64,000 nt of DNA from Candidatus Bathyarchaeota archaeon (GCA_963772455.1 CAVYXJ010000010.1:192001-256000), one strand, 5' to 3'; numbered from the stretch's first letter, positions 8,699 to 61,924 are shown. The notes: a model not told the origin generated them from the letters alone. Numbers and translations are program-made.

Positions 8699-9124
8699 AT
8701 GTCTTGGCTTAAATCTATGATGGAAAAAGAACCACCAGAACCAGAAAATCCAATCGGCATAGTCGTAATCGGTAACATCGAACCAGACATGCACGACACT
8801 GCAAAAGAAGCAGTCAGACGCTCACTAAAACGCGCAGGATTCAAAACAATTGACGTTGGAAAAAGTGTTTCACCACAAGTTTTCATTGACAAAGCAAAAG
8901 AAAACAATGCAAACTTGATTGCAATTTCAGTTAACACTGTTCCAGCAAAAAACAACATCGCAAAACTTGATGAACTCTTAAAAGCAGCAGGTCTCAAAGA
9001 CAAAGTCGGCATAATCATGGGCGGCGCAGCAGTCAAAAAAGAAGATGCAGACGCAATCGGTGCACTTTTCGGCAAGAACAAGGAAGAAGCTCCTGAACTT
9101 GCAAAGAAAGCATTGAAGAAATAA
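8699..9124 (+). CDS. Stand-alone cobalamin (corrinoid)-binding protein lacking the N-terminal cap domain
   Basis: B12-binding Rossmann motifs VIGNIEPDMHDTAK (DxHxxG variant), IAIS and IMGGA in 141 aa. Confidence 0.85.
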   Translation: MSWLKSMMEKEPPEPENPIGIVVIGNIEPDMHDTAKEAVRRSLKRAGFKTIDVGKSVSPQVFIDKAKENNANLIAISVNTVPAKNNIAKLDELLKAAGLKDKVGIIMGGAAVKKEDADAIGALFGKNKEEAPELAKKALKK

Positions 9125-9143
9125 ATCCATCAGATGTGGAAAA

Positions 9144-10055
9144 ATGTCCTTTAAATTCAATACCCCACAAAAAATATATGACCTCGCCGGAGCAAAAATA
9201 GGCGGTCAACCGGGAGAAAATCCAACCTTTTTGATCGGCTCCATCTTTTGGCTAGGCCAAAAAATGGTTACCGATGCAAACAAAGGAATTTTTGATGCTA
9301 AAGCAGCCGAACAAATCATTAACACATGCCAAACCCAAAGCGACATAACCGGAGTCAAATTTGCACTAGACATCGTCGGCACAACAGAATTAGCATTCGA
9401 AAAATACATCGACTTCGTACCGAAACACACTGATGCACCACTCATGCTAGATGCAATGAGTCCAAAGACCCGTATGGGCGCAGCAACATTAGCAAAAAAG
9501 ATGGGTCTAGCAGACAGATGCCTCTACAACTCCGTCTACAAAGGAGTTATGGATGCTGAACTTGCAAACCTAAAAGACAGTGGCATCAAGATGTCCATTG
9601 TTCTTGCTGACGATCCAAAAGACACTACACTAGAAGGCAAAATGAAAGTAATTGTTGAAGCACTCGCACTAGCAGACAAAGGCGGCATCACAAAACCCCT
9701 AATCGACACAGCCATCCCAGCATTCGAACCAGACATGGGCACAGCCGTCAGAACCATACCAATAATGAAAGAAAAGTACGGTCACCCTGTAGGCTTAGGC
9801 AGCGGAAACGTTGTCACAACCATGGGTTGGGTCAAAGCAAACGTCGCAAAAGAATTCCGCCCAGGATGCAGAACAGCAACAAACTCAATCATGCAAATGG
9901 CAGGCGCAAACTGGCTAATGATCGGTCCAGCAGAACAGGCAGAATGGGTATTCCCAGCAGTCGCAGTCACAGACACATACATCGCTTCAGCAGCCGGTGA
10001 CCTTGGAACAAGGCCTCTCGAAGAATCTCATCCAATCTACAAGATGTTCATGTAA
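9144..10055 (+). CDS. mtrH: MtrH/MtgA-family methyl-pterin:corrinoid methyltransferase
   Basis: N-terminal FKF...KIGGQPGENPTFLIGSIFW, LYNSV, LIDTA, GHPVGLGSGN and C-terminal HPIYKMF, all typical of the MtrH family. Confidence 0.85.
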   Translation: MSFKFNTPQKIYDLAGAKIGGQPGENPTFLIGSIFWLGQKMVTDANKGIFDAKAAEQIINTCQTQSDITGVKFALDIVGTTELAFEKYIDFVPKHTDAPLMLDAMSPKTRMGAATLAKKMGLADRCLYNSVYKGVMDAELANLKDSGIKMSIVLADDPKDTTLEGKMKVIVEALALADKGGITKPLIDTAIPAFEPDMGTAVRTIPIMKEKYGHPVGLGSGNVVTTMGWVKANVAKEFRPGCRTATNSIMQMAGANWLMIGPAEQAEWVFPAVAVTDTYIASAAGDLGTRPLEESHPIYKMFM

Positions 10056-10104
10056 AAATTTTCTTCCTTTATTTTTTATTTTTTTTAAATTTTGAGGTAA
10101 AAAT

Positions 10105-10515
10105 CTGAAACCAATAAACTGGTTTGAAATAATCTTAGGTTTTACAATTTTAACACTACTGACTGTCTATCTTACCCCAAACAATACAGATTTATCAATT
10201 ACCTTAGTTCCAAGATATATTCTAAGTTTTATTTTTATCTCTTTTTTACCAGGTTACTGCCTTGTAAACATTTTATTCTTAGGAAAAAACAGCATAGATC
10301 TTGTAGAACAATTAGTGTTGTCAGTTGCTCTAAGTTTTGGGTTAACAGGGTTGATAGGTTTATTCTTGGGGTTATCGCCTATCGGGATTAATTTTACTTC
10401 AATCACAGTTTCACTTAGCCTGTTAGTTCTAATTCTAGCAACAATTGCATTGATTAGAAAAAGAAGAGAATTATCAAGGTCTAATGTGCAGGTACCTGAG
10501 CAAGTAAGCGCCTGA
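10105..10515 (+). CDS. DUF1616-like membrane protein (apparent CTG start)
   Basis: Frame of ORF 10315..10515 stays open to CTG at 10105 behind a GAGGT SD. Contains RYILSFIFISFLPGYCLVNILF...DLVEQLVLSVALS. Confidence 0.6.
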   Translation: MKPINWFEIILGFTILTLLTVYLTPNNTDLSITLVPRYILSFIFISFLPGYCLVNILFLGKNSIDLVEQLVLSVALSFGLTGLIGLFLGLSPIGINFTSITVSLSLLVLILATIALIRKRRELSRSNVQVPEQVSA

Positions 10516-11853
10516 AGTTTTCACTGCAGCGATACCATAGACATTGCCTTTGAGCAGCATCTTAAACACATAGCTAACTCGTAAATAGAAATCCTGGTAA
10601 GCCTTGTAACGAAGCTCAACTAGTTTCTCCATGCTTAAAGAAGGCGTCTCAAAAGTTGGACCAGCAGTATCATACTTATCAAAATCGGTAACTCTTAGCC
10701 AACCATTCTTCTTTACCAATTCATACATTGGTGTTCCAGGATAAGGCGTGGCAATATAGAAACCCACATCATCAGGATTCAACTCTTTAACGAAACGGAT
10801 AGTTTCTCGAGCAGTCTGTTCGGTTTCACCTGGAAACCCCAAAACAACATTAGCAATAGTCATCAATCCCAACTGATGCGCGGTCTTGTATGCCAATCTG
10901 GTTTGATCCAGCTTAATGCGTTTGTTCATAGCTCCAAGAATAGCTTCAGAACCAGACTCTACTCCTAACCAAACTGCAAAACAACCCGCATCCCGCATAG
11001 TTTTCAACAATTCTCGGTCAACCATATCAACGCGAGTGCCGCAATCCCATTTTATATGCAACTTTCTAGCTTGCAGTTCCTCACAAATTTTGATAACCCG
11101 GTTGCGGTCAACACTAAATGCATCATCATAAAACGTAACTTGGTCAACACCATACCTGTCATGGACCAACTGCATTTCATCTACAACGTTTTTAGGACTG
11201 CGCATTCGATAGCCTCTGCCAAACATGCGCACAGTGCTGCAGAAGTCACACCAAAAGACACATCCACGACTGCTTACCAACGGGAAAATTATTTTACCAT
11301 TATGCTTTAGACTTTCAAGCGGCATCAAGTGATGAGCTGGAAAAGGAAGAGAATCTAAATCTTCAATGAAAGGCCTATCTCCATTGCGAACAATTTTATC
11401 CGCGTTTCTATAAGTGATGCCTAACACCTCATTGAAGCTGGATTTATTCTGGATCTTATCCATAAGCTCAATGAACGTTTGCTCACCCTCTCGACGCACA
11501 ACAATATCTAAACTTTGAGATTCTTGAAGCGCGTTTTCATCCCAAAAGGACCCATGTGACCCGCCAAGCATCGTGACTGCTTGCGGCTGAACTTGTTTAG
11601 CAATTTCGATTAACTTCATTGCAGAATTATAAAGCAGCGTTGTTGCAGTTACCCCAATTATGTCAGATGGCGTATGTGAAATACGCTCGCGAAAGCTTTC
11701 ATAATTAAGTTTCTCAGCTTGACAATCGATTACTGTAACCTGGTGACCTGCATTCTCCGCAACAGCACCCAAATACCCTAATCCTAACGGAATAAACGGT
11801 GGATGCGAATGGCCACTTTGTGGATAAGGCGGATTAACTAGGGTAATTTTCAT
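10474..11853 (-). CDS. Cobalamin-dependent radical SAM enzyme (class B) #1
   Basis: N-terminal B12-binding domain (PLGLGYLGA, GGSH), SSRGCVFWCDFC, FYDD, GVESGS and PYPGT. Confidence 0.9.
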   Translation of the reverse strand: MKITLVNPPYPQSGHSHPPFIPLGLGYLGAVAENAGHQVTVIDCQAEKLNYESFRERISHTPSDIIGVTATTLLYNSAMKLIEIAKQVQPQAVTMLGGSHGSFWDENALQESQSLDIVVRREGEQTFIELMDKIQNKSSFNEVLGITYRNADKIVRNGDRPFIEDLDSLPFPAHHLMPLESLKHNGKIIFPLVSSRGCVFWCDFCSTVRMFGRGYRMRSPKNVVDEMQLVHDRYGVDQVTFYDDAFSVDRNRVIKICEELQARKLHIKWDCGTRVDMVDRELLKTMRDAGCFAVWLGVESGSEAILGAMNKRIKLDQTRLAYKTAHQLGLMTIANVVLGFPGETEQTARETIRFVKELNPDDVGFYIATPYPGTPMYELVKKNGWLRVTDFDKYDTAGPTFETPSLSMEKLVELRYKAYQDFYLRVSYVFKMLLKGNVYGIAAVKTSGAYLLRYLHIRP

Positions 11854-11990
11854 TTCAGATAGCCTGTGCAAAGGAGATTCTATGTTGGATTAAATATATT
11901 GCTTTCTTTAATTTCCAAAAAATAAGGCTCAATTGTTATTTGATATTTGATTTATTATGAATAAAAAATATTGAGTAAAGAAACGATTGT

Positions 11991-13377
11991 TTAGGAGAGT
12001 TTTATGTGCATTGCCCTAAGAGCATACGCCGCGGATGTTTTAAGTCCAGATCTCCCATATGTTCCGCCTTTGAGCATCATCTTAAACACGTAGCTAGGTC
12101 GCAAGTAAAACTTTTGATGTGCCTTGTATTTAATTTCCCGAATCTTTTCCATACTTAACTCAGGGGTCTCAAAAGTCGGGGTAGCTGTATCATATTTGTT
12201 AAAGTCGGTTACTCGAAGCCACCCGTTTTTAACTACTTGCTCATACATTGGGGTACCCGGATACGGTGTTGCTACATAGAAACCAATATCATCTGGGTTT
12301 AATGAATTGATAAAGTTGATTGTCTCCCAAGCAGTCTCCTCTGTTTCACCAGGAAAACCGATGACAGCACTGGCTATGGTCATCATACCAGCCTTCTGCG
12401 ACATCTTGAAAGCTGCGCGGACTCCTTCAGGCTTTATTTTTTTATGCATCTGATCTAAGATTCTTTCTGAACCAGACTCAACACCAAACCATATGGTTAT
12501 GCATCCAGCATCATGCATTTTTTCAAGTAATTCTTTGTCAACGGCATCAACTCGGGTTTCACAATCCCAAGTAACATCTAATTTACGGGCTTTGATATCC
12601 GCGCACATTTCAAGTGTATGCTGACGGTTAACTGTGAATGCGTCGTCGTAAAATGTGAATTGGCTCTGCCCATACTTGTTATGCAGCATCTCCATATCGT
12701 CTACAACCATTTTGGGACTACGTACACGGTAACCTCTGCCAAACATTCGTACTGTGCTGCAGAAGTCACACCATTGGACACATCCACGACTGGTTACTAT
12801 TGGAAAAATAGTTTTTCCCATGCGGTGATAGGAGTCCAAGAGGAAGCAAATGATAAGCTGGAGAAGGCAACGAATCTAGTTCGAGCAGGAAGGGTCTGTC
12901 TTCATTACGTATGATTTTTCCGTTGCTCCCACGGAATGTGGTGCCTAAGACTCCTTCAAAATTCTTTTTCGCTTCAATACGCTGCAATAATTCAAGAAAC
13001 GTCAATTCGCCTTCACGACGCACAATTACGTCAATAGCCTGAGATTCGTTTAGGGCGTTTTCATCCCAAAAGCTCACGTGGCTTCCGCCAATCATTGTAA
13101 CTGCGTTTGGCTGTTCTTCTTTTGTAATTTCCATTATTGTTTTAGCTGAATTATAAAGAAGCGTAGTTGACGTTACTCCAACTACTTCAGATGGAACCTG
13201 CTTAATTTTTTGTCTGAAGGTATCATAAGTTAATTTTTCACCTTGGCAGTCGATTACTGTGACTTGGTGTCCTTCTTTTTCGGCGACTGCTCCCAGATAG
13301 GCTAAGCCCAATGGGATGAAGGGTGGATGTGAATGTGCATTTGGAGGATAGGGTGGATTAATGAGAGTAATTTTCAA
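11991..13377 (-). CDS. Cobalamin-dependent radical SAM enzyme (class B) #2 (single frameshift near 12838)
   Basis: ORFs 12766..13377 and 11991..12839 join by removing one G. TSRGCVQWCDFC. Close paralog of #1. Confidence 0.88.
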
Positions 13378-13646
13378 GGTAGTTTCGCCCTTTTAGTGAT
13401 GGTTGTACGCTAGATGGATTATATAGTTTTCTAAATAAAACCAAAAACACGAAAAACCATGCTTTAAGAAGAAAAGGCTCTTAAAACAAATCGGTTAATG
13501 GTGTCTAAAAGAAAGAAGGCAATGTCCACTTGTTTAATTACGATTAGGGTTCATCTTGGTGATGCTAGTGCTCAAAGCGAACTGTCTAACCCATTTTTAT
13601 CAGTTGCTATCTGACTTTTTGTTGAGTAAGCTAAAAGTTTGGGGGT

Positions 13647-14873: not shown

Positions 14874-15776
14874 TTACTTGTAGAGTTTTTCCCAGCGGCT
14901 AAATAGATCCAATACTTCGTCGCCGCCGTGATCTTTGAGGAATTCACGTGTTTCCTTATCTTCGGCTGCTTCTTTCTGGAACTTTTGAATATATTCAGCT
15001 TTTTCAGCAAGGAAAATGATTCCATCAACGCCTTGTCTTGCAACTCGGGTTGCAACAGTCATGATCTGTTTTGTTGGTGCAACAGTATCCCAAGTTTCGT
15101 TTGGACCGCGAACGTAGAAATTTACAAAGACTGGCTTTTTGAGGAAGCTTTTGTAGCCTCTTGCGATTGTTTCCCAGTACCAAGGTGTTGGATATGCTTT
15201 GCTGAACATTGGTATGACAAAGTAGTCAGCGTATTGTGCCATGGCTTCAAAGTCATATCCGAAGCGTTCTTTGCCCATTAATGGGTCAGGAAGACAGTTA
15301 ACGAAGAGGGGTTTACCGGATACTACTTCTTTAACTTCAGCAAGGAAGTCAGTTACCACTTTTGCTCTCCAATCAACCCATTTTAAGCCACTTTTTCTTT
15401 GTTGTTCTATGCATCTTGGGCAAGTGCAGAAATGTTGGTCGGCAAAATGTTGGCTGCTGATGCTAATTCCTGGGGTGATTTTAGCAGTTTCAGCGATAAT
15501 TTTTAAGTTATATTCTCTGGCTTCTGGGTTAGTCATGCATACGACGTCCCAGCGCAAGTTAAAGCGTTTGTTTGTACGGAGTGCTGGACCAAAAGAGCTT
15601 ACCGATACCCAGTCAGGCCGTTTTGCAGCCATGTTATTGTCGCCGAAAACTGCGATGTTAGTGTACATTTTTGGATTTGGTTTTCCAACGATTCCTGATT
15701 CTGATTTTTGACGATAGAAGTTATAGTCGACGCCTTCAACAGGCTCGGGTTGATAGAGAAATACGCCGAATTTCAA
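14874..15776 (-). CDS. Glycoside-hydrolase-like TIM-barrel protein with a four-Cys metal site (paralog A)
   Basis: VVCMTNP...HFADQHFCTCPRC, a C...CxCxxC pattern as in GH42/GHL-type barrels. Similar along its length to 17182..18066. Confidence 0.55.
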   Translation of the reverse strand: MKFGVFLYQPEPVEGVDYNFYRQKSESGIVGKPNPKMYTNIAVFGDNNMAAKRPDWVSVSSFGPALRTNKRFNLRWDVVCMTNPEAREYNLKIIAETAKITPGISISSQHFADQHFCTCPRCIEQQRKSGLKWVDWRAKVVTDFLAEVKEVVSGKPLFVNCLPDPLMGKERFGYDFEAMAQYADYFVIPMFSKAYPTPWYWETIARGYKSFLKKPVFVNFYVRGPNETWDTVAPTKQIMTVATRVARQGVDGIIFLAEKAEYIQKFQKEAAEDKETREFLKDHGGDEVLDLFSRWEKLYK

Positions 15777-15845
15777 GTTTAATACACCATTTTTCTGTTG
15801 TTTTTGTTTACGGAATAAAAGTGCAAGTTATTTAAGTCTTTTCAG

Positions 15846-16883
15846 TTAAGGCGCAGATTGCGCGTTTCTAACAATATTGATCAAAGTATGTTTTAAGAAA
15901 GGAGGCAAATCTACAAATTCATAATTTGGTGTTTTTGTACTTTCAAGTTTGTTTTGTGTACACAGCCCAAAGAATTTACTTGTCTGTATCCAATCCTTAA
16001 AGTCAGCTGGCAAAAGGTTCTTTTTGAAGTCATCATCCATCTTCGCCGCCGCCAATAAGAGCATCAAATAAACATGGTTCTTTTTTAGAATTTCAGCCAA
16101 GCTCTCTGCGTTTACTGTTAACCCCTCTACTTTGGATATTTCAGACACCAACTTCTCAACTGAAAGATGGCGTTCCTTGAGTCTGTCCAACACAGTTCGA
16201 CATGCCCATACTGGTTCCTGCTTGAGCAACGCTTCTGTAACAGCTTTTCTTGTACAAAAACCCACAAGCTTGCCCAGCTTTGAGGCTGGACCCCCCAAAC
16301 TTAACGGTCTGCCTAAACAATTTGAAGCAATTGTAACGCTATCAGTTATCGAACCTGTCGCCGAATCACCTGTATACCTACTTCGAATATCAAAATCTCT
16401 TAGCACTGCCGATTTTGCTTCAGTAGCAGTGATTAATGCAGCGACCATACAACTCTCCGACGGGTTACCATCGATTAATACGATAATGTTTATTGTGCCG
16501 ACAATTTCTTGAACATCCATCTCTTCCCCTGATGACTCACCATGTGAACATCCAGCCGTTGCAATTACATTTACAGAAAAATCGGTATCTTTCTTTGAAA
16601 CTAAACTATAATTTTTTATTTTTGCAGCTGTGACCATCGCAAGGTAATCTTTAGTTAATCCAACCTTTGCCGCGGATGAAGTTATAAGTTCTAGAGGGTT
16701 AAGGTGCAAGGAACGGTCACTGTATCCTTCAGGTACGCCTACATTGAGGACGGCTTTAACCTGCTTGAACCCGCCATTATAGAAAGCTGAGCTAACTGTC
16801 TTTAAAGAAGAATCGCAGAAAACAGCTATAACATTTTCTTTAACGATAAGGTTAACGTTGTTTGCGAGGCTAATTTGCTCCAA
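15846..16883 (-). CDS. cbiZ: Adenosylcobinamide amidohydrolase CbiZ with a C-terminal CobZ-like extension
   Basis: GTINIIVLIDG, ALITATEAKS, ATGSITDSV and GPASKLGKLVG. C-terminal RLKERHLS...LLLAA...LPPFL resembles archaeal CobZ. Confidence 0.8.
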   Translation of the reverse strand: MEQISLANNVNLIVKENVIAVFCDSSLKTVSSAFYNGGFKQVKAVLNVGVPEGYSDRSLHLNPLELITSSAAKVGLTKDYLAMVTAAKIKNYSLVSKKDTDFSVNVIATAGCSHGESSGEEMDVQEIVGTINIIVLIDGNPSESCMVAALITATEAKSAVLRDFDIRSRYTGDSATGSITDSVTIASNCLGRPLSLGGPASKLGKLVGFCTRKAVTEALLKQEPVWACRTVLDRLKERHLSVEKLVSEISKVEGLTVNAESLAEILKKNHVYLMLLLAAAKMDDDFKKNLLPADFKDWIQTSKFFGLCTQNKLESTKTPNYEFVDLPPFLKHTLINIVRNAQSAP

Positions 16884-16904: not shown

Positions 16905-17123
16905 CTATTTTTTTTGGGTGCTAACAGTTATAGTGATGGCTTTACTAGGGCACAAATTCACACAAACTCCACACTTTGTACATTGAACAAGAGTGATAAC
17001 TTGGGGTTTTCTATTCTTGCCTTCTTCTAATGCACCCTGTGGACAAACACCAATACAGATTTGCCCCGTGCAGGGACCACATTTAGTTGCGTCAATTGTG
17101 ATTGGAGATTTATGCTTGTCCAT
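16905..17123 (-). CDS. [4Fe-4S] dicluster ferredoxin
   Basis: CGPCTGQICIGVCP and CTKCGVCVNLCP. Confidence 0.85.
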   Translation of the reverse strand: MDKHKSPITIDATKCGPCTGQICIGVCPQGALEEGKNRKPQVITLVQCTKCGVCVNLCPSKAITITVSTQKK

Positions 17124-17181
17124 TTGAATCAACAATTAAATAAGCGCCAAGAATATATTTGTTGCGAGCAAGGAATTGGGC

Positions 17182-18066
17182 ATGAAAATAGGCTTAGTCA
17201 CATACAAACCTGAATATGTTGAGGGCTTTGACCTTCACGTTTACTATTCCAAATGGGTCGACGGACAAGTTTTTCCTGCGGCAAAAGGCATGCAAAACGA
17301 TGTTACAGTTTTATGTGATGCCAAAGCAATCCGTGAAGACCCAAGCCTTGTCGCCCTTTCAAAAACCGGTCCGGCGCTGCGAAGCAATAAGAGAAGTCAT
17401 TTTGTCTTTGACTATGTTTGCCCGACACATCCAAGTTACCGGGCTAAAGTTATGGATTACATCGAAGGATTAAGCAAAGAAAAAATTCTTGGTGTAACAC
17501 TTAATCTCTATCATTTTCCAGACCAAGACTTCTGTATCTGCCCCAGGTGCACAGAACAAAGGCAGAAGAGCGGTCTAAACTGGACACAATGGCGAGCTCA
17601 AACAATCACAGAATTGCTAAAAGAAGCTAAATCGAAAATTAGTGGAACGTTTGCTGTTGAAATTTACCCCGATCCAGTTTTAGCTAAAGAACGTTTTGGC
17701 ATAGACCTTGAAGCAATCGGGAACCTGGTGGATTATTTCCATGTACCCTTATCCTCACGCGATTATTTAACAAGCTATTGGGTAGATATACTAACTCGGG
17801 ATTTCGTTGCAATCCTAAAAAAGCCAATTGTTGTTGAGTTGAGTGCCGAAATGCCAACAGATGAAAAACTCAACGCCCTACTTAGAACAACAGCTTATAT
17901 TTCACGGCATAACTTGGACGCAGTATTGCTACTTGTTCATGATTCTGAAAACGCCCGACAAGTCGCACAATTTGCTGTACACAACAGTGACTTTCGAGAC
18001 TGGATAGAAAAATACGAGTTTACAGAAATGCAACGCGTCGTGGATGGTTGGGCTAAACTTTACTGA
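17182..18066 (+). CDS. Glycoside-hydrolase-like TIM-barrel protein with a four-Cys metal site (paralog B)
   Basis: GPALRSNKR, YVCPTHP, HFPDQDFCICPRC, QKSGLNWTQWRA and PDPVLAKERFG, all shared with paralog A. Confidence 0.55.
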   Translation: MKIGLVTYKPEYVEGFDLHVYYSKWVDGQVFPAAKGMQNDVTVLCDAKAIREDPSLVALSKTGPALRSNKRSHFVFDYVCPTHPSYRAKVMDYIEGLSKEKILGVTLNLYHFPDQDFCICPRCTEQRQKSGLNWTQWRAQTITELLKEAKSKISGTFAVEIYPDPVLAKERFGIDLEAIGNLVDYFHVPLSSRDYLTSYWVDILTRDFVAILKKPIVVELSAEMPTDEKLNALLRTTAYISRHNLDAVLLLVHDSENARQVAQFAVHNSDFRDWIEKYEFTEMQRVVDGWAKLY

Positions 18067-43652: not shown

Positions 43653-43656
43653 AGCG

Positions 43657-45144: not shown

Positions 45145-45283
45145 ACGGCTGATGGAACTATTATGTGTTTTGCAGATAAGCCTAAAAGTGGTTTTTCTTC
45201 GAGTTTGACGTAGAGCACAAGGCTTTTTACTTCAAGCATCAACTATCCAATTAATGTCGGCAATAACTGGAGAAATTTGGCAT

Positions 45284-52566: not shown

Positions 52567-53001
52567 TTGGAGCATGAGGAAGAATTAAACGCAACAACCT
52601 TCCAAAGTTACCTCTATTTAGTTAAAGTGGGCAAACCCGTTGGACCGCGAGATTTGATGCGTGGAGCTAACCTCAGTAGCCCAAGCGTTGCCTATAGAAA
52701 TCTCCAAAAACTCATAGATTTAGGTCTAGTGGTTAAAGACACATACGGAAATTATGTTGTTAAGGAAAAATTAGGCATGAAAGGATATGTATGGTTGGGA
52801 AAAACCCTTATCCCAAACTTTGCCATCTTTGGATTTATTTTTGTAGGTGTTCTAATTGCTGAAATTGCAGTTTTAGCTCCCCACTTAATTGTAGGTGCAC
52901 CCGTTGAAGAGTCATTTTGGCTTTTGACGATAGTAACCATTGTTGCTGCAGTAGTTTTTTTGGTTCAAGCTTTGCAATTTAGAAAGAAAACTAAAAGTTA
53001 A
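52567..53001 (+). CDS. Winged-helix DNA-binding protein with two C-terminal TM helices
   Basis: PVGPRDLMRGANLSSPSVAYRNLQKLIDLG plus two TM helices. Paralog of 29175..29630. Confidence 0.75.
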   Translation: MEHEEELNATTFQSYLYLVKVGKPVGPRDLMRGANLSSPSVAYRNLQKLIDLGLVVKDTYGNYVVKEKLGMKGYVWLGKTLIPNFAIFGFIFVGVLIAEIAVLAPHLIVGAPVEESFWLLTIVTIVAAVVFLVQALQFRKKTKS

Positions 53002-53103: not shown

Positions 53104-54486
53104 TCATCTTCTTAGTTTAAGTTTAATATTCGCTGCAAAATGCACACCAACAATAAGTGCCGTAGAAAGTCTAAATCTTCTCTTTTTGTCAAAGAAGAAG
53201 GCTCTACGTAGATAGTAATGATGAAACGCGCCTTCCCTAAGCTTGCCTAGTACCTTCATGCTTAGCTGTGGTGTCTCAAAAATCGGTTTTGTAGTATCGT
53301 ACAAATCAAAGTCTGTTATTCTAAGCCATCCCTTCTCCTTCACCAAATCGTACATGGGTGTTCCTGGAAAAGGTGTTGCAACATTGTAGAATCCCACTGC
53401 GTCTGGTGCAACTTTTTCTACGAACTTGATGGTTTTCCATGCACTCTCTTTAGTTTCTCCTGGGAAACCAAGGATAACGTTTGGAACAGGAATCAAACCT
53501 GCTTCGCGAACCCAACTTAAGACTTTCATGGTTAATTCTGGAGAAATGCCTTTTTTCATGGCGTCCAAAACTTGTTGAGTACCCGACTCAACGCCAAACC
53601 ATACCGAAACGCAACCAGATGTTTTCATCTTGGCAAGCAGCTCTTGGGTTAACATGTCAACGCGCGTTCCGCAGTTCCATTCAATCTTCAAACCACGCGT
53701 GAGAATTTCATTGCAGAGTGCTTCTGTTCTTGACTGATCTACTGTGAAAGCGTCGTCGCAGAACGTAAATTTTTTCACACCATACGTTTTGTGTAGCAGC
53801 TCTAATTCGTCAACCACATTTTTGGGGCTTCGCATACGGTACTTTCTTCCATGCATCCTCACTGTTGTACAGAATTCACACCAGTAAACACAGCCTCGGC
53901 TAGTTGCCAAATATAGGATGTCTTCTAATTCGCGAAACTTCTCCATTGGCCAAAGGTGACGCGCTGGAAAAGGTAGACTATCTAAATCCTCGATATATGG
54001 TCTATCGGGGTTCCTCACAATTTTTCCGTTATTTCGACAAGTCGTGCCTAAAACGTCGCTGTAACTTTTCCCTGATTCAATCCGCTGAACCAATTCAAGC
54101 ACAGTGTTTTCGCCTTCACGTCTAACTACGATATCTAGTTCTGGGCATTCTTCTAGGGCATGGTCATCCCAAAAAGTGACGTGAGAACCACCAGCAATTG
54201 TTATGCAGTTAGGACAAACTTCTTTGGCTATTTTAACAAGCTTCAAAGCCGCACGATAAGTTAGCGTTGATGAAGTTACCCCCACAATATCTGGTTGGCG
54301 TTTGCTAATTTCGTTCTTGAAATCTTCAGGTGAAAGTTTCAACAACTGACAATCAATGACGTCAACTTTGTACTGGTTTTTCTCTAAAACTGCAGCCAAA
54401 TATCCCAAACCCAATAGTGCGAAAGGCATATGCATAGCTGCACCAACAGGGGCTGCAGGGTTAACCAAGGTTACGTGAGGATTCAT
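53104..54486 (-). CDS. Cobalamin-dependent radical SAM enzyme (class B) #6
   Basis: LGLGYLAA, GGSHVTFWD, TSRGCVYWCEFC and GVESG. Confidence 0.9.
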   Translation of the reverse strand: MNPHVTLVNPAAPVGAAMHMPFALLGLGYLAAVLEKNQYKVDVIDCQLLKLSPEDFKNEISKRQPDIVGVTSSTLTYRAALKLVKIAKEVCPNCITIAGGSHVTFWDDHALEECPELDIVVRREGENTVLELVQRIESGKSYSDVLGTTCRNNGKIVRNPDRPYIEDLDSLPFPARHLWPMEKFRELEDILYLATSRGCVYWCEFCTTVRMHGRKYRMRSPKNVVDELELLHKTYGVKKFTFCDDAFTVDQSRTEALCNEILTRGLKIEWNCGTRVDMLTQELLAKMKTSGCVSVWFGVESGTQQVLDAMKKGISPELTMKVLSWVREAGLIPVPNVILGFPGETKESAWKTIKFVEKVAPDAVGFYNVATPFPGTPMYDLVKEKGWLRITDFDLYDTTKPIFETPQLSMKVLGKLREGAFHHYYLRRAFFFDKKRRFRLSTALIVGVHFAANIKLKLRR

Positions 54487-54625: not shown

Positions 54626-55663
54626 TTAGGACTCGATAGAAGAATCAAACCAGTGTTTAGGCGTAAGTTCGTTTTCTAACAATGAAGGGAATAGGTTGAG
54701 AGGCCATCCTGGGAGCATCGGTGTTAAGAAAATATCGGTTTTTTCTAGACCAAAAATTTTCCTGATTTTTTTCTTTGCCTCAAACATTTTATCAAAATCC
54801 TCAACCACAATTGCAACGTACAAGTCGTAAGTGCCGATGAGTCTTATGATTACGATAACGTTTGGTATCTGGAGTAAATGGCCGTAAATCTCTGCCATCT
54901 TACTTCTGTTCGAGACTTTTATGTAAAAGTTAGCGATCGCATTGTATCCGAGCTTACTCAGGTTAAGTGTAACTGCGGAAAGTGTAATCAAATTCTGTCT
55001 TAGTTTTTTGTATCTTTGAATTACTGTTTTAGTTGATACGCCGAGCTGTTGGGCAATTTTCCTAAATGGTGTTCTGGCTTTTTGGCAAAGTACCAATGCG
55101 ATTTTTCTATCAATTTCATCAATTTCTAAAGGTGCTTGGTCTAGATTGACCAAAGCAGGTCTTTGAATGCTCTTGATTTCGTTTTGAAGTTTAAGCGGAT
55201 TAATGATTAGGTTTTGAGGAAATTCAATATTTATTGCTTCAGCCCAAATTAAAGCATCAACGTGCTCGATTTTATGGTTTGATTCTAAATCCTCAATGAT
55301 TCCTGATAACTTGTTTAGATCTCTCAAAGCTACTTTTCCAAAGAAATTATATTTTCCAAAATGGCTAACCACTTGAGAAATGTATGGCTTACTGTCAAGG
55401 TATTTTATAACTTCATTTTCGTTTTCAGTATCAGTTATAATTCCTAGATCTATAATATGCCTATAACCAAGGCAATGGGGATTAACAAGCATTACCTCCC
55501 CCGTTATTACGCCTTCTCTGGATAAGCGTTTATATCGCATTCGAACTGCTCCAACAGTGATTTTGCATTCGGCAGCTATGTCTGTAAAACTTGTTCGGGC
55601 TTCAAGTAGGAGCATCTTTAATATTTTAGCATCTATTTCATCGATTTTTGTTGAGTTGCGCAA
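54626..55663 (-). CDS. Tandem (double) Lrp/AsnC-family transcriptional regulator
   Basis: Two IDEIDxKI...ART.F..IA HTH modules, each followed by an AsnC ligand domain (GKYN, GTYDL). Confidence 0.85.
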   Translation of the reverse strand: MRNSTKIDEIDAKILKMLLLEARTSFTDIAAECKITVGAVRMRYKRLSREGVITGEVMLVNPHCLGYRHIIDLGIITDTENENEVIKYLDSKPYISQVVSHFGKYNFFGKVALRDLNKLSGIIEDLESNHKIEHVDALIWAEAINIEFPQNLIINPLKLQNEIKSIQRPALVNLDQAPLEIDEIDRKIALVLCQKARTPFRKIAQQLGVSTKTVIQRYKKLRQNLITLSAVTLNLSKLGYNAIANFYIKVSNRSKMAEIYGHLLQIPNVIVIIRLIGTYDLYVAIVVEDFDKMFEAKKKIRKIFGLEKTDIFLTPMLPGWPLNLFPSLLENELTPKHWFDSSIES

Positions 55664-56174: not shown

Positions 56175-56987
56175 TTGCGAACAGATTCAGCTCTTAATGA
56201 ACAAATTCACCAAGCAAACATTGCAGTCCACCGAGTCGAAGCTCAATATTATGAATTATTGCATCCAGAAGTCTACAGTTTTCAAGAACAAAAAAGAATT
56301 ACTGCTAAATTGAAAAAAATCGATAAGCAAATTGCAACCAACCAAAGAAATGCCCTGGATGTGGGGGCTGGTACTGGCAACTTAACAGGCAAACTATTGC
56401 AAATGAATTACAACGTAATAGCGACGGATATTTCGCCAGAAATGTGTTTGATACTGAAGAAAAAATATGCTGCCTACTTGCCAGACAAGTTAACTGTAAT
56501 TAATTCGCCAATAGAAGATCTAAGTTTTAGCAAAGACCAATTTGATCTTATAACATTCTATTCTGTTCTACATCACTTGCCAAATTACCTTGAAGCTCTC
56601 AAAGGTCTCTCGATTTTCTTAAAGCAGGGAGGAATAATGTACATAGATCATGAAGCTTCGCCTTTCTACTGGAAAAACGAACCGAGCAATCTTGCGAGCA
56701 TTGTAAAAGACCTTTACTTTCATTCAAATCCAATTATCAATAGTTTATATTTCGGTCTAATCGGCTTAAAAATCCCAACAATCGATTACACTTTGTCGGA
56801 TTATTGGCATAAAAAAGAACATGCCCTAAACCAACACGCCATAATCCAGGTTTTCAAGACTGAGGGTTTTGAATTTTATAAACGAACAGATTACTACCAA
56901 CAAGCTACTTGGATTCCAAACCCACTGTATCCTATTTATCGGCTTTTGTGTAGCCCCGAAATGAGTTATTGGGTTGCAAAAAAATAA
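56175..56987 (+). CDS. Class I SAM-dependent methyltransferase
   Basis: ALDVGAGTG, TDISPEM and FDLITFYSVLHH. Confidence 0.85.
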   Translation: MRTDSALNEQIHQANIAVHRVEAQYYELLHPEVYSFQEQKRITAKLKKIDKQIATNQRNALDVGAGTGNLTGKLLQMNYNVIATDISPEMCLILKKKYAAYLPDKLTVINSPIEDLSFSKDQFDLITFYSVLHHLPNYLEALKGLSIFLKQGGIMYIDHEASPFYWKNEPSNLASIVKDLYFHSNPIINSLYFGLIGLKIPTIDYTLSDYWHKKEHALNQHAIIQVFKTEGFEFYKRTDYYQQATWIPNPLYPIYRLLCSPEMSYWVAKK

Positions 56988-58408: not shown

Positions 58409-58618
58409 CAATGCTATGTCAAAGAGATAATTCAGGATAAAATACAATTTTAGAAGAAAAAATAACCAGCGAAACTATAAAATCAACAAGTCCTTGTCTC
58501 TTTAGAGAGGGTTTTTTCGTCATCTATTCCGTAAAACTGAATAATATCCAAATTATCGGTTTTGAGTGGAGCGATTTTTTTTATCATTGAAATAGTTTTC
58601 GTCGAAGAACAATTCCTC

Positions 58619-60046
58619 TTAAGCAACTCCTGTTCTCTTCCTCGTTCCGCCCATGATCCTGCGTTTTGCGAAGTTCACTGCGCCTTCACGGCGGATTCTT
58701 TTTAGTATCTGTTTGGGAGTCATGTGGAATTCTTTGAAGAATCGACGTTGTACCATCATGAGTGAGTCATAGTCGAACTCGTCGGTTTTTACGCTTAGCA
58801 AGAACTCATCCAACTTCACATAATTGCCCTTTTCTAGCAATTCGTTGTAGAGTCTACTGTCGGGGTAAGCGATGAAGGTATTGAATTGGCACCAGTCAGG
58901 GTTAAGTTTCTTGGCAAATTTGAGCGAGTCTTCCATGTCTTTTAGCGTCTCGTCGGGTAAGCCTATCATGAAGGAGCATGCTGTTTTTATCCCATTTTTT
59001 CTGCAGAGTTTAAACGCGTTTTCTACTTCTTGAGGTGTAGTATTTCTGCCGATTCGTTGGAGAATTTTTTGTGACGCAGATTCGACGCCAAACCAAATGG
59101 TCTTGCAACCTGCCTTACTCATCAACGATAAAAGATCGTTGTTAACAAGGTCCACGCGGGTATCGCAAACCCATTCTAAATCCAACTTGTTCTCAAGCAT
59201 CAAATTACAGAGTTCAGCAGTTTCTTTTTTTCGCAAAGTAAAGTTGTCGTTAATAAAATAGATTCCTTTCGTTCCATATTTGCTCTGTAGGTCTTGGATT
59301 TCTCCAATAACTCTTTGCGGACTGAAACATCTGCACATATTCCCCCATAACTTACGGGTTTCACAGAATCCACAATTATAGACGCATCCCCTTGAAATGC
59401 TCATTACATCGGCGGGTTTAGCATCCAAATACTCGATTGTTCGATCGTAGAGCTCAAGCGGCAATAGGTGCCTCGCTGGATACGGGATTTCATCCATATT
59501 CTCGATGAACTTGGGCGGGTTCTTGATGTTTTCACCATTACGCTTGACTGCAACGCCCGAGATAGCTGCGGAGGCTTTTTCGTTGCCACTCATTATTGTG
59601 GTTGCTAGTTCGGTAATTGCACGTTCACCCTCACCCATGACGACATAGTCAATTTCGGGGTTACTCAGCAAGCTATCAGGCATGTAAGAGGCGTGCCATC
59701 CCCCCACAACAATCTTGCAGTCAGCTTTTGCCTGTTTGATAGCCTTGGATGTTTCTACGCATCTTGGATAAGTAGCTGAACCGCAGGTTATTCCCACGAT
59801 TCCAGGGTTAATCTGCGTAATTAACTGCTTGATCTCTTCGGTTGATTTTTTCATAAGGTAGTTGTCGAGCATCTGCACTTTGAAGCCTGCTTTTTCTAGT
59901 GCTGCGGCCACGTACATTAATCCGATTGGAGGCAACCGTTTGCCAAGGTACCATGCACCGTTTTCAGGCGGAGCAGTGGTCATGAGCAGGACAGTGTTGT
60001 TTTCGGGTTTGGGTTTAGAATCTTTGGTTATTGGCTTGACGGGCAC
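58619..60046 (-). CDS. Cobalamin-dependent radical SAM enzyme (class B) #7
   Basis: PPIGLMYVAA, GGWHAS, SRGCVYNCGFC, NDNFT and GVESAS. Confidence 0.9.
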   Translation of the reverse strand: MPVKPITKDSKPKPENNTVLLMTTAPPENGAWYLGKRLPPIGLMYVAAALEKAGFKVQMLDNYLMKKSTEEIKQLITQINPGIVGITCGSATYPRCVETSKAIKQAKADCKIVVGGWHASYMPDSLLSNPEIDYVVMGEGERAITELATTIMSGNEKASAAISGVAVKRNGENIKNPPKFIENMDEIPYPARHLLPLELYDRTIEYLDAKPADVMSISRGCVYNCGFCETRKLWGNMCRCFSPQRVIGEIQDLQSKYGTKGIYFINDNFTLRKKETAELCNLMLENKLDLEWVCDTRVDLVNNDLLSLMSKAGCKTIWFGVESASQKILQRIGRNTTPQEVENAFKLCRKNGIKTACSFMIGLPDETLKDMEDSLKFAKKLNPDWCQFNTFIAYPDSRLYNELLEKGNYVKLDEFLLSVKTDEFDYDSLMMVQRRFFKEFHMTPKQILKRIRREGAVNFAKRRIMGGTRKRTGVA

Positions 60047-60383
60047 GGTTTTGCCTCTGTGGACGGGTGTGTTGTTCCTTTTGATGATTTGCGCTGTTTA
60101 TAGCTTTAACGGAACACTGCTATGCAGCTAGGTTTTATTGTGGTTTGCAAGTTTTGGGTCTGAAATAATCAATTCAACTTCAACATGCTAATGCCCAAAC
60201 AATCTCCAATGCTGACCTACCCCTAAATAGTTGGAATATAGTTTTTATTGCAAAAGCCAGAGGGTAATTCACTTAGAAACATTGTTGTTATCTATCCGTG
60301 CCTTATCCAAAGTCAAGTAAAATGCTTTTTCTAATTTTGTTTTAATTTATGTTTGTACATCATGTCTGTTAGAGTCGTATAAA

Positions 60384-60602
60384 ATGGTTAAAACTATCGC
60401 TATTAGTGATGAAGTTTACCAAAAGTTAATCATAATGAAAAGAGAGGACGAAAGCTTCAGTGAACTTTTTGACCGACTTGCTAAATGCCCGAATTCGCAT
60501 CAAGTTTTAACCAAGCTACGACTTTCAGTCGTATTAGAAAAAGAACAAAAAGATAAGATTCTAACTGAAATATCAAAGAAACGGTCTGAACGCAGAAGAT
60601 AA
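60384..60602 (+). CDS. vapB: Archaeal VapB-type antitoxin (DUF217-like)
   Basis: MVKTIAISDEVYQKL..MKREDESFSELFDRL pattern. Confidence 0.8.
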   Translation: MVKTIAISDEVYQKLIIMKREDESFSELFDRLAKCPNSHQVLTKLRLSVVLEKEQKDKILTEISKKRSERRR

Positions 60603-60787
60603 TTACTAGAAACGATGCAATCTGTTCAAGTAAGCTTAAGTTGGAGGCGGAAAAAACTGGCATCTCCATCGGTAGAATCGATACTATGGTCGCAGCAATT
60701 GCAATAAATAACAATGCTTCCCTGTACATGTTCAACCTGAAACATTTTGAGTCTCTAAAAACGCAATGGCTCAAACTCTTCAAGTAA
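60599..60787 (+). pseudogene. Truncated VapC (PIN) toxin, C-terminal half only
   Basis: Reads ...EKTGISIGRIDTMVAAIAINNNASLYMFNLKHFESL...* with no N-terminal DTN motif and no proper start. Confidence 0.7.
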
Positions 60788-60802
60788 TCAGTCATTTCGT
60801 CT

Positions 60803-61924
60803 TTACTGTTTGTTAGCGGTTAAGATGGTTCTTATTTTTTCTACAAGCTGCTGGTTGTCTTTGGCTGAGCGGACTGTAACACGGAAGTAATGGTCGTCTA
60901 ATCCCATGAAGGTACAGCAGTCGCGTATTAGGATGCGCTCCTGAGCAAGTAATTCTTTGAGCATGGTGGATGTGATTTGGGAGTTTGTGATTTTTACTAA
61001 CAGAAAATTGGTTACGGATGGGTAAACGTGTAAGCCTTCGATTTCGCTCAATGCTTTGGCGAGGGTTTCGCGGTTTTTGGCGATTGTTTCTTTTGTGTTC
61101 TGTATGAATTGTTTGTCATTTATGGCTGCCATCGTCACTAGACAGGCTAAGCCGTTGATGCTCCAGGGCAACCGCATCGTCTGCAACTTGTCGATAAGGT
61201 TTCCCGAGGCAACTGCATAACCAAATCTGATTCCCGCCATCCCGTAAAACTTTGTGACAGAACGAATAACAAAGAGGTTCTCGTAATCCTTCACCATCCC
61301 AGCCAATGTATTGTCCAAGCTTTTATCGGCAAATTCGATATAATTCTCGTCTATACTGAAGATAATGTCTTTCTTGTTGCAGAATTTAACCAGATCCAAA
61401 AGTTTCTCTTTGCTGTAGAGAATACCTGACGGGCTGTGAGGGTTGCATATGCAAATGATTTTGGTGTCGTCGGTTACTGCTTTTTTGATCTTGTCTGTTT
61501 CCATCTCAAAGTTTTCTGGTAACTGAACAAACACTGGTTCCCCGCCAACCCGAAGCGTTGCCTTCTCATATTCCGAAAAGGAAGGTACAGGAATCAATGC
61601 TTTGAAGCCTCTTGGCAGAATCTCTGTAATCATGTAGATGAGTTCAATTGAGCCATTGCCCAAAAGCAGGTTTTCTTCTTCAACTCCATGACCCACGTAT
61701 TTTGCGATTTCTTCTTTGAACTCTACAGGGTTTGGGTCTGGATAATAACGAATTAATTTTGCATTCTGCTTTACGGCTTCTATAGCTTTGGGTGATGGTC
61801 CTAGAAAGTTTATGGGTCCGCTGAATTCGAGCACGTCTTCGAGGGGTATGTTATATTTTCTGCTGAAACCCCAAATGTCGCCGCCGTGGCTGACGAATCT
61901 ACGTTTTTTACATGTGCTCGACAC
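60803..61924 (-). CDS. cobD: L-threonine-O-3-phosphate decarboxylase (CobD/HisC family)
   Basis: SHGGD, FSGPINFLGPS, YPDP, GNGSIELI, RSVTKFYGMAGIRFGY and ILIRDC. Confidence 0.8.
   Translation of the reverse strand: MSSTCKKRRFVSHGGDIWGFSRKYNIPLEDVLEFSGPINFLGPSPKAIEAVKQNAKLIRYYPDPNPVEFKEEIAKYVGHGVEEENLLLGNGSIELIYMITEILPRGFKALIPVPSFSEYEKATLRVGGEPVFVQLPENFEMETDKIKKAVTDDTKIICICNPHSPSGILYSKEKLLDLVKFCNKKDIIFSIDENYIEFADKSLDNTLAGMVKDYENLFVIRSVTKFYGMAGIRFGYAVASGNLIDKLQTMRLPWSINGLACLVTMAAINDKQFIQNTKETIAKNRETLAKALSEIEGLHVYPSVTNFLLVKITNSQITSTMLKELLAQERILIRDCCTFMGLDDHYFRVTVRSAKDNQQLVEKIRTILTANKQ

Follow-up and report, generated by a model that had tools for sequence, protein, structure and literature searches.

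The DNA considered here is a 64,000-nt window (the whole stretch that was analysed) from a genome of Candidatus Bathyarchaeota archaeon (GCA_963772455.1; CAVYXJ010000010.1:192001-256000), in which an island of radical S-adenosylmethionine (SAM) enzyme genes, interspersed with genes for cobamide assembly, occupies positions 8699–61924. The genome comprises 2.445 Mb in 24 contigs and is 92% complete; the window represents 2.6% of it. A scan of 59 window open reading frames (ORFs) with Pfam and NCBIfam models identified ten radical SAM (rSAM) genes, all located on the minus strand: seven with a B12-binding domain (B12-rSAMs, labelled W1–W7), two with a SPASM domain and one that is HemN-like. These are the ten enzymes listed in an earlier interpretation made from the DNA alone (hereafter the sequence-only reading), although two of the genes proved to be frameshifted. 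The other components it named are likewise present, namely two class I methyltransferases, a bacterial-type metK, cbiZ, cbiB and cobD, an MtrH gene paired with a corrinoid-protein gene, ferredoxins, rnfDC, and genes of the GT-C, GT2 and AT3 types. Its remark that the genes do not form one operon also holds, with at least eight transcription units interleaved with plus-strand genes. The island copies of the cobamide genes are referred to below as CbiZ2, CbiB2 and CobD2, and C5, C7 and C10 denote contigs.

The seven B12-rSAMs are all composed of a B12-binding domain followed by the rSAM core (PF02310, 45.7–92.6 bits; PF04055, 75.8–89.3 bits), the split W2 included. W1 (10474..11871) represents B12-binding rSAM orthogroup 1 and is accompanied by a tandem paralogue, the frameshifted W2 (11991..13377), in which the B12 domain spans 12766–13377 and the rSAM domain 11991–12839. 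Orthogroups 3–7 are represented by W3 (37699..39105), W4 (43657..45144), W5 (46864..48312), W6 (53104..54486) and W7 (58619..60046), respectively. W3 lies 2 nt downstream of the SPASM rSAM gene SPASM2 (39108..40202; PF04055 and PF13186), W5 lies 53 nt downstream of CbiB2, and W7 is on the same strand as CobD2. The second SPASM gene, SPASM1 (27945..29071), is divided between two frames, with the SPASM domain at 27945–28604 and the rSAM domain at 28658–29071. The HemN-like enzyme, of the class C type, is encoded at 33446..34639 (PF04055). In an alignment of the six intact B12-rSAMs, the cysteines of the CxxxCxxC motif (C204, C208 and C211) are invariant.

None of the ten rSAMs reaches the cut-off of a curated NCBIfam family, and an assignment of each enzyme to a characterised housekeeping cluster, which the sequence-only reading had named as an outcome that would tell against it, is not what we observe. 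The best B12-rSAM scores fall well under the respective cut-offs for BchE (254.8 versus 481, for W1), HpnJ (249.2 versus 578), TIGR04014 (152.5 versus 360) and Sden_1168 (210.5 versus 575), and those for HpnR, PhpK and the MCR glutamine C-methyltransferase are also not reached. Scores against the BzaD model (TIGR04385) range from 99.1 to 153.2 bits for the six intact enzymes, with a cut-off of 450; the lipid rSAM model TIGR04072 gives 101–155 versus 360, and the ApyD model 129–237 versus 750. SPASM2 is below the cut-offs for AhbD (216.9 versus 500), NirJ (156.5 versus 515) and PqqE (111.1 versus 381). SPASM1 is AhbD/NirJ-like, yet far under those cut-offs, and neither SPASM enzyme reaches that of AhbC. 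For the HemN-like rSAM, the scores are 161.8 versus 400 for HutW, 144.2 versus 205.4 for HemW and 109 versus 325 for HemN. The nearest solved structures to the B12-rSAMs are AprD4 (E 8e-45, over the rSAM core only), 9ccb, OxsB and TokK, followed by the Trp C2-methyltransferase 6wte and CysS. Judged by sequence, the ten enzymes are true class B, SPASM and class-C-like rSAMs without an assignable specificity. In-frame TAG or TGA codons were flagged in several B12-rSAM matches. For W5 of this genome and its G001 orthologue, the match extends 33–36 nt beyond the end of the ORF, so that the stop is the normal terminal one and recoding was rejected.

At least seven frame breaks are distributed over six genes: W2, SPASM1, the amidohydrolase and the PQQ-like propeller described below, and two large secreted proteins. 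The two ORFs of W2 overlap in different frames with a homopolymer at the overlap, and the three break sites that were inspected all lie beside short A or T runs. At 41371, contigs from two public runs lack one base, which would restore a single propeller ORF of ~845 aa. Errors of assembly or differences between strains seem a likelier origin for the breaks than gene decay, an impression checked at 41371 only.

The concentration of rSAM genes in the window is far above the genomic background. PF04055 has 45 matches genome-wide, ten of which are in these 64 kb where 1.18 would be expected (Poisson P ~5e-7, a value that assumes independence, which tandem duplication violates). The eight highest counts for 64-kb segments include none from elsewhere in the genome, the lowest of the eight being 5, and seven of the ~13–14 B12-rSAM genes in the genome are located here. 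The sequence-only reading had accepted that a similar density throughout the genome would undermine it; instead, 10 of 45 matches fall within 2.6% of the DNA. Two further B12-rSAM ORFs, at the end of contig C7 (C7:485224-486578) and the start of contig C10 (C10:251-943), are 92% identical over 230 aa and may represent a single gene whose repetition interrupted the assembly.

The window B12-rSAMs differ considerably in their relatedness. W1 is 65% identical to W2 and 55% to W6, W3 and W4 are 38–43% identical to those three and to each other, and W5 and W7 are only 28–35% identical to the remaining window B12-rSAMs. In a tree that includes relatives they form separate orthogroups that are older than the genus, some containing sequences from a ‘Candidatus Bathyarchaeum sp.’ contig. 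A tblastn comparison of all window proteins with six same-genus genomes recovered nearly the whole island, with some blocks rearranged, and a 1:1 orthologue of each B12-rSAM at 70–92% identity (78–89% for W1). This one-to-one retention of old orthogroups argues for distinct, retained functions. Intact tandem W1–W2 copies occur in G014, G015 and several further loci. SPASM2 is 79–97% identical in relatives and always lies beside a PQQ-like propeller gene; the HemN-like gene adjoins W3 in these relatives as well.

Members of the B12-rSAM family are numerous in the genus, with 6–19 matches per genome in 18 of 18 same-genus genomes and 0–5 in 12 genomes from 11 other families of the order. The lineage is a soil-type, Bathy-6-type group of Bathyarchaeia. 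Homologues from outgroups (L094, L096 and L097) have unrelated neighbours and provide no functional hint. The comparison of synteny that the sequence-only reading had proposed thus comes out in its favour, the rSAM concentration being conserved in same-genus genomes and in three other genera.

In those three genera (G075, G080 and G040), the same orthogroups are found in compact, operon-like form within 19–20 kb and with almost no unrelated genes, although their CbiB2 proteins are only 53–61% identical to the window copy. The G075 cluster begins with SPASM2, the PQQ-like propeller followed by the amidohydrolase, a DUF71 gene and the gene for the membrane protein hyp234. It continues with a run on one strand at L104:7419-14546, separated by gaps of 54–159 nt, of W1-like, W3-like, W5, CbiB2 and W6 genes, and ends with methyltransferase 1, an aldo-keto reductase with an Fe-S domain, W7 and another SPASM rSAM. 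The order in G080 is GT2b, GT2a, hyp184, CobD2, W7, W1-like, W5, CbiB2, amidohydrolase, W4, propeller, SPASM2, W3 and HemN-like; CobD2, five B12-rSAMs, CbiB2, the amidohydrolase, the propeller, SPASM2 and the HemN-like gene are contained in 18.7 kb. The G040 cluster is similar. A shorter arrangement, CobD2–W7–methyltransferase–W1-like–W3-like–W5-like–CbiB2 in ~9 kb, is present at L036, L049, L050, L060, L062 and L085.

The compact clusters do not contain the block of MetK, asparagine-synthase-like, M48 peptidase, MoCF, RidA and GPN ATPase genes that surrounds metK in the window, nor do they contain the corrinoid/MtrH pair or an AT3/GDSL pair. These genes are more plausibly insertions or neighbours than members of the pathway. 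The DUF71 gene within the G075 cluster has a GEYH motif, as does another located upstream of CobT–CobS in the present genome (C10:285.9-288.4 kb). This motif is close to the signature of a B12-salvage DUF71 subgroup given in the portion of PMC3541065 available to us.

The cobamide genes of the island are second copies. CbiZ2 (15846..16883, minus strand) is an adenosylcobinamide amidohydrolase that matches PF01955 with 159.8 bits against a gathering score of 27. CbiB2 (48366..49385, minus strand; PF03186, 234.9 bits), a putative adenosylcobinamide-phosphate synthase, scores above the cut-off of TIGR00380 (227.1 versus 165.9) and below that of NF002281 (264.8 versus 273). CobD2 (60803..61924, minus strand), which is threonine-phosphate-decarboxylase-like and may use either Thr-P or Ser-P, falls just under the TIGR01140 cut-off (287.6 versus 290.55) and overlaps the gene for a membrane protein upstream of it (61908–62462). 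A canonical set is encoded on contig C5, where CobD and CbiB are adjacent and are accompanied by BtuF–BtuC–BtuD, a SPASM rSAM, DUF2284 and CbiZ. The C5 CbiB scores 298.1 with TIGR00380 and 337.1 with NF002281, above both cut-offs, the C5 CobD passes TIGR01140 with 299.9, and the C5 CbiZ matches PF01955 with 196.6 bits. By blastp against all ORFs of the genome, island and C5 copies are only 41–43% (CbiB), 35% (CobD) and 33% (CbiZ) identical. The proposal of the sequence-only reading that these genes provide a local B12 supply is therefore partly sustained, in that they are physically tied to the rSAMs; they are divergent second copies, however, with the canonical set elsewhere.

The duplication of CbiB and CobD extends through the genus, with both types of each enzyme in all 18 same-genus genomes surveyed. 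The canonical CbiB and CobD genes remain adjacent to one another, with no B12-rSAM alongside among the matches listed, whereas the island-type CbiB is within 140 nt of a B12-rSAM in at least 15 of the 18; in the other three, the nearest B12-rSAM among the matches listed (93 more were not) is 0.8–2 kb away. The CbiB2–W5 pair is conserved in all six same-genus genomes compared. Across the family, an even draw of 60 genera was surveyed, with B12-rSAM matches counted at E<=1e-60. Island-type CbiB (49–79% identity) was found in 13 of these genera. The 13 genomes with CbiB2 have 3–9 B12-rSAM matches (five or more in 12 of them), versus 0–4 in the other 47. Among the matches listed, which omit eleven, the distance from CbiB2 to a B12-rSAM is at most 250 nt in 8 of the 13, at most 1 kb in 9 and at most 4 kb in 11. 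A predicted CbiB2–W5 complex received a score of 0.00, which weighs neither way.

The genus does not appear to synthesize corrinoids itself. CbiC, CbiD and the ThiC/BzaF families were not found in this 92%-complete genome, and a 100%-complete genome from the genus likewise gave no CbiC match. CbiC, an indicator that corrin is made de novo, was found in 7 of 61 genomes, all of which carry CbiB2. The absence of these families suggests that the genus looks like a corrinoid salvager that keeps two sets of linker enzymes. According to PMC11697101, in the part available to us, most Bathy-6 genomes encode almost all of de novo B12 synthesis, which differs from the lack of detectable CbiC and CbiD here.

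CobT and CobS lie outside the window by 30 kb. They belong to a DUF71–CobT–CobS operon, in which CobS is frameshifted; this operon and an ECF CbiQ/CbiO/CbiO module are located at C10:285885-292740. A second CobS-like gene (C10:276084-277052) adjoins genes for a UbiA prenyltransferase and for an rSAM that has an HMPTM zinc ribbon. At Rfam gathering thresholds, the only match in the window is a tRNA (2290–2362), with no riboswitch detected.

A redox component of the cluster is suggested by an RnfD-like gene (29952..31067, plus strand; PF03116, 145.2 bits; TIGR01946, 92 versus 207) that overlaps an RnfC-like gene (31064..32365, plus strand; TIGR01945, 395.2 versus a cut-off of 246). RnfA/E (PF02508) gave no match in the 92%-complete genome and was found in four reference genomes used as a control; RnfB and RnfG were not searched. 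RnfC/RnfD is, on this sequence evidence, an orphan pair. Together with hyp234, the pair is conserved within the cluster across genera. On the ‘Bathyarchaeum sp.’ contig L065, a 752-aa protein (5693–7948) encoded directly after three B12-rSAMs and SPASM2 combines RnfD, 2x[4Fe-4S] ferredoxin and FrhB/FdhB domains in one chain. This fusion and the conservation of RnfCD support a redox role that would be linked to the cluster. A 76-aa 2x[4Fe-4S] ferredoxin with two Cys motifs (16905..17135, minus strand) is encoded 21 nt upstream of CbiZ2, and the ferredoxin–CbiZ2 pair is conserved in relatives; a second ferredoxin, of 61 aa (1824..2009), is located outside the island. The electron supply envisaged by the sequence-only reading thus survives insofar as RnfC/RnfD and the ferredoxin are tied to the cluster, and is weakened by the failure to find RnfA/E in the genome.

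Two other proposed suppliers are better regarded as neighbours. The bacterial-type MetK (22490..23668, minus strand; TIGR01034, 553.7 bits versus a cut-off of 309) has no paralogue in the genome, and a search for the archaeal-type SAM synthetase (PF01941) returned no match in this 92%-complete genome, the control being found in four archaeal genomes. Because of these two results, MetK, as the sole SAM synthetase found, is by its sequence a housekeeping enzyme and not part of the cluster core. Its absence from the compact clusters likewise speaks against a dedicated SAM supply. The methyl group used by class B rSAMs is drawn from SAM and not from an MtrH/corrinoid pair. In the window, that pair consists of a short MtgC-like corrinoid protein (8699..9124, plus strand; PF02310, 54.8 bits, with all corrinoid NCBIfam models below cut-off), which has a paralogue at C10:383390 (59%), and a single-copy MtrH/MtgA-like methyl-corrinoid methyltransferase (9144..10055, plus strand; PF02007, 258.9 bits; TIGR01114, 265.4 versus 271.4). 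The latter scores 196 versus a cut-off of 550 with the NCBIfam MtgA model, which is of the glycine-betaine type. The two genes are adjacent, 19 nt apart, and W1 and MtrH converge tail to tail. The pair matches the MtgA/MtgC O-demethylase module of Bathyarchaeia as presented in PMC11697101, insofar as its available text goes, and is a neighbour of the conserved core, not a member; the methyl supply assigned to it by the sequence-only reading is thereby set aside.

Several other genes accompany the rSAMs. Class I methyltransferase 1 (42951..43760, minus strand; PF08241) is located downstream of W4 and recurs in the clusters of other genera, and methyltransferase 2 (56175..56987, plus strand) was identified in the Pfam/NCBIfam scan. 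The Amidohydro_3 amidohydrolase (45254..46835, plus strand) is frameshifted, with PF07969 detected in both ORFs; it is intact (528–544 aa) in other genera, where it adjoins CbiB2 or W5. The secreted, anchored PQQ-like β-propeller (40435..42970, plus strand; PF13570 and PF13360) is also frameshifted and is a core member in other genera. A secreted protein with a signal peptide and a C-terminal membrane helix in its translations (34863..37600, plus strand, frameshifted) and a second member of the same anchored family (49609..52374, plus strand, two frameshifts) belong to a group with ~25–33 BLAST matches genome-wide. Two GT2 glycosyltransferases (62547..63998, plus strand) are conserved beside the membrane protein and CobD2.

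The membrane protein hyp234 (32533..33237, plus strand) is conserved in Bathyarchaeia, has no Pfam match and is present in compact clusters. Its predicted model has a pLDDT of 67, and ECF S-components dominate the Foldseek matches, the best of which has an E-value of 0.04 (none at E<=0.001); an Atlas score of 0.86 is treated as a lead only. From this model, hyp234 is possibly similar to an ECF S-component. Two membrane-anchored winged-helix proteins, at 29175..29630 (minus strand, conserved beside SPASM1) and 52567..53001 (plus strand, oriented divergently to W6), are 47% identical and have a winged helix at the N-terminus and membrane helices at the C-terminus. Both adjoin an rSAM gene and are conserved in relatives, and they may regulate the cluster from the membrane. 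Upstream of W6, a fused double Lrp/AsnC protein (54626..55663, minus strand) matches NirdL-like_HTH (32.9 bits versus 27) and is under the AhbA cut-off (43.7 versus 140); it may serve as a regulator or may be AhbA/B- or NirDL-like. A different locus on the same contig (L107, C10:70183-79613) encodes two tandem double-Lrp/AsnC paralogues together with a 649-aa SPASM rSAM that scores 363–368 bits for NirJ2/AhbD (cut-off 500), and would more plausibly belong to an Ahb- or heme-d1-type pathway than would the island SPASM genes.

The ferredoxin–CbiZ2 pair is flanked by two glycosidase-like barrels that have a Cys-rich stretch in common. Barrel A (14874..15776, minus strand), downstream of CbiZ2, has a weak DUF4015 match, and barrel B (17176..18066, plus strand), 33% identical to barrel A, has no Pfam or NCBIfam match; further paralogues are encoded at C5:65353 and C7:284081. 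Downstream of MtrH, a frame at 10096–10515 (plus strand) encodes a conserved small membrane protein with multiple helices; it is convergent with W1, whose 3′ end it overlaps. The ratio of synonymous to nonsynonymous changes in this frame is 1785/706, a stronger coding signal than the 1280/1343 of the minus-strand ORF, and no stops are present in 13 sequences. A conserved 50-aa ORF (10254–10406, minus strand) was rejected as a precursor peptide, being a shadow of this plus-strand frame. A 47-aa ORF (58483–58626) has partial matches only, covering 15–62 aa at 40–87% identity, and no precursor-peptide ORF of at least 35 aa was found in the gaps beside SPASM2/W3, W4, W5 and W6.

Near the start of the window, the tRNA at 2290–2362 is followed by a truncated terminase-like ORF (2422–2904). 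Inverted copies of the DNA at 2290–3217 (82–90% identity, 234–537 nt) are located 1.7–3.5 kb past the window end (C10:257679-259543), where they adjoin a full Terminase_6N gene. These provirus-like repeats bracket the island and could mediate its inversion.

The best explanation for the locus is an old, clade-specific cluster of the Bathy-6-type lineage that has been stretched to ~55 kb in this genome by inserted genes. From the compact forms, its core would consist of five to seven class B rSAM orthogroups, a SPASM rSAM, the HemN-like rSAM, a class I methyltransferase, the Amidohydro_3 hydrolase and the PQQ-like propeller. CobD2 and CbiB2 appear to be embedded in this core, together with the orphan RnfC/RnfD pair, a small membrane protein and, in this genus, CbiZ2 with its ferredoxin. 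We tentatively read the cluster as a conserved radical tailoring pathway that has its own cobamide-maturation line and redox module, a proposal to which we give somewhat less than an even chance. CbiZ2, CobD2 and CbiB2 would process scavenged corrinoids to the cobamide with which the rSAMs are loaded, and the ferredoxin and RnfCD would deliver low-potential electrons to them. Each rSAM orthogroup may then perform a different radical step, in most cases probably a C-methylation, with one cytoplasmic substrate common to all. The Mtg corrinoid/MtrH pair would be a bystander, as would MetK and the housekeeping block. Provisioning of this kind would have a parallel in bacteria, where operon-specific PduO, PduS and EutT accompany B12-dependent enzymes.

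A number of considerations weigh against this proposal. That the rSAMs share a substrate is a supposition, and in this genome the genes are dispersed over the separate transcription units noted above, with plus-strand genes between them. Synteny within the genus may just mirror common descent, and the genera with CbiB2 may be a single clade, in which case the contrast between the 13 and the 47 genomes could reflect one evolutionary event. The dedicated second cobamide line is proposed by analogy to bacterial pdu and eut operons, and the divergence of CobD2 and CbiB2 may allow for a changed substrate. With W2 and SPASM1 frameshifted, their activity in this genome is uncertain. Nor need the chemistry be methylation: many class B rSAMs are not methylases, such as the cyclase BchE and the non-methylating OxsB. 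The class B rSAM Ted is a desaturase, according to the part of 10.1101/2025.10.20.683597 available to us.

A different use for the same genes is that the rSAM array acts on a corrinoid or a related tetrapyrrole and produces a clade-specific cobamide or a new cofactor, which we consider unlikely. CbiZ2, the amidohydrolase and DUF71 would strip cobamides, CobD2/CbiB2 would attach a linker, possibly a different one, and the rSAMs and methyltransferases would modify the ring, the linker or the lower ligand. The position of CbiB2 amid a four-rSAM operon in G075, and of CobD2 and CbiB2 at the flanks of the arrays in G080 and L060, would be accounted for, as would the fact that the cobamide genes of the cluster are divergent paralogues and not sole copies. 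The amidohydrolase, the DUF71-B12-like gene, hyp234 (possibly S-component-like) and the barrels linked to B12 salvage fit the same picture. For five different cluster proteins, the nearest named families are those of tetrapyrrole enzymes (BchE, AhbD/NirJ, HemN/ChuW, NirDL-like and CbiB/CobD/CbiZ), a resemblance that carries little weight given that BchE, AhbD and HemN are default top hits for unassigned rSAMs. We know of no cobamide modification that requires five to seven rSAMs. The accessible part of PMC11697101 reports homologues of BzaCDE, including one located at a B12 locus in the closed genome of that study; here, the BzaD scores are 99–153 versus 450, a genome search for a 5-hydroxybenzimidazole synthase of the ThiC/BzaF type gave no match, and CobT/CobS are 30 kb beyond the window. 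Of the three targets put forward by the sequence-only reading, a cobamide or tetrapyrrole nevertheless has the most contextual support, while being unproven. In a specific form that we regard as rather unlikely, the array remodels B12 itself or builds a related cofactor, with CobD2/CbiB2 attaching an amino-alcohol phosphate that is possibly not aminopropanol phosphate. In that form, the scaffold would be a corrinoid or another carboxylate, tailored by the five to seven class B rSAMs, the HemN-like and SPASM enzymes and the methyltransferase. The rSAM that always follows CbiB2 could, for example, C-methylate the linker in the manner of Fom3, and the product would be a cobamide or cofactor specific to the clade, perhaps for the co-clustered secreted propellers.

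The propellers themselves could be the target, if SPASM2 and neighbouring rSAMs modify these secreted PQQ-like proteins ahead of export or make a cofactor for them from a peptide or small molecule. In G075, G080, G040 and each of the six same-genus genomes compared, SPASM2 has a PQQ603-type propeller gene as its neighbour, and G014, G003, G015 and L084 have a second propeller gene between SPASM2 and W3 on the same strand; dozens of such proteins and a PqqE-like ‘possible PQQ synthase’ are reported for Bathy-6 in the part of PMC11697101 seen. We nonetheless judge this improbable, as most of the 53 genomic PQQ_2 matches lie away from B12-rSAM genes, the PqqE score is 111 versus 381, neither a PqqA-like nor any other precursor ORF was found, and CbiB2 and CobD2 are left unexplained. 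A general adjacency of rSAM and propeller genes was also considered and rejected, the genome's other B12-rSAM genes not being beside PQQ_2 genes. The peptide target of the sequence-only reading loses ground in the same way, with no precursor-peptide gene in the window. Its lipid target, in the form of tetraether methylation, desaturation or cyclisation, or of butanetriol/pentanetriol backbones, seems still less probable. B12-rSAMs are the main known archaeal lipid modifiers, Ted is from a Bathyarchaeota genome (10.1101/2025.10.20.683597, available in part), and chemistry of this enzyme class would suit several paralogues acting on one scaffold, but neither the window nor the compact clusters contain lipid-synthesis or AttH-like genes, and TIGR04072 scores are 101–155 versus 360. 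We attach the lowest probability, and a very small one, to the anaerobic conversion of lignin-derived aromatics, which PMC11697101, in the sections accessible, speculates to be the role of the Bathy-6 rSAMs and for which it proposes that the secreted propellers act on lignin. The Mtg O-demethylase pair adjoins W1 throughout the genus, but it is missing from the compact clusters, its tail-to-tail arrangement with W1 means that the two are not co-transcribed, and the cluster contains no aromatic-catabolism genes. There is, finally, a slim chance that the island is no functional unit at all and is instead a hot spot of tandem duplication whose gene order is kept by descent and whose enzymes serve unrelated processes. 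The tandem duplicates W1 and W2 (65% identical), the coming and going of extra paralogues among relatives and the housekeeping genes that interrupt this genome's version would all be expected; on the other side, the orthogroups are found together, rearranged and compact, where CbiB2 is only 53–61% identical, and larger arrays go with the presence of CbiB2. In the genomic context, the propeller, lipid and lignin readings and that of no functional unit find scant support or none.

Bathyarchaeia rank with the most abundant uncultured archaea in anoxic soils and sediments, and their many B12-rSAMs call for an explanation. The abundance itself was already known: PMC11697101, to the extent available, counts 7–20 COG1032 B12-rSAM genes per Bathy-6 genome and describes dozens of secreted PQQ-domain proteins, an MtgA/MtgC module, a CbiZ gene beside BtuFCD, a PqqE-like gene and BzaCDE homologues. 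We did not find the conserved cluster, its compact form or its tie to the second CbiB/CobD/CbiZ set described in the literature, of which PMC11697101 was seen in part and its Figs S7 and S10 and Table S4 may overlap with them. The present analysis replaces a bare rSAM count with a defined conserved set consisting of named orthogroups, a compact five-gene operon in one genus and a second CbiB/CobD/CbiZ line as partner.

Among known systems, Grs, Gmm, Cgm/Pgm and Ted involve the same enzyme class in partly the same phylum, and there, too, different chemistries are applied to one scaffold; the Ted homologues, of at least 500 aa, overlap an AttH-like gene in the part of 10.1101/2025.10.20.683597 available, whereas the island has no lipid genes in its context. 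The island may also be compared with multi-rSAM natural-product clusters. In the polytheonamide cluster (PoyB/C/D), as here, several class B rSAMs, other rSAMs and a class I methyltransferase are found together, but no precursor-peptide gene was found in the window. The bza operon (BzaA/B or BzaF, BzaC, BzaD and BzaE) directs the anaerobic synthesis of the benzimidazole lower ligand and, like the island, places B12-rSAM methyltransferases and a class I methyltransferase among cob genes; it differs in having two rSAMs instead of five to seven, and the array described here is flanked by CbiB/CobD paralogues, not by CobT. If tailoring of a corrinoid proves to be its function, the cluster would represent a new branch of cobamide chemistry. 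PduO, PduS, PduGH and EutT are embedded in the operons that they serve, PduS being an RnfC-like flavo-FeS protein, and cobamide-salvage genes are located beside the reductive-dehalogenase islands of Dehalococcoides. In those systems, as in the island, B12 users carry their own cofactor-processing copies in addition to the housekeeping ones. Unlike the pdu and eut operons, the island embeds the linker enzymes CbiB, CobD and CbiZ instead of an adenosyltransferase, and the users are class B rSAMs; if its enzymes do not tailor corrinoids, the cluster would illustrate how an archaeal pathway can provide its rSAMs with a dedicated cofactor supply.

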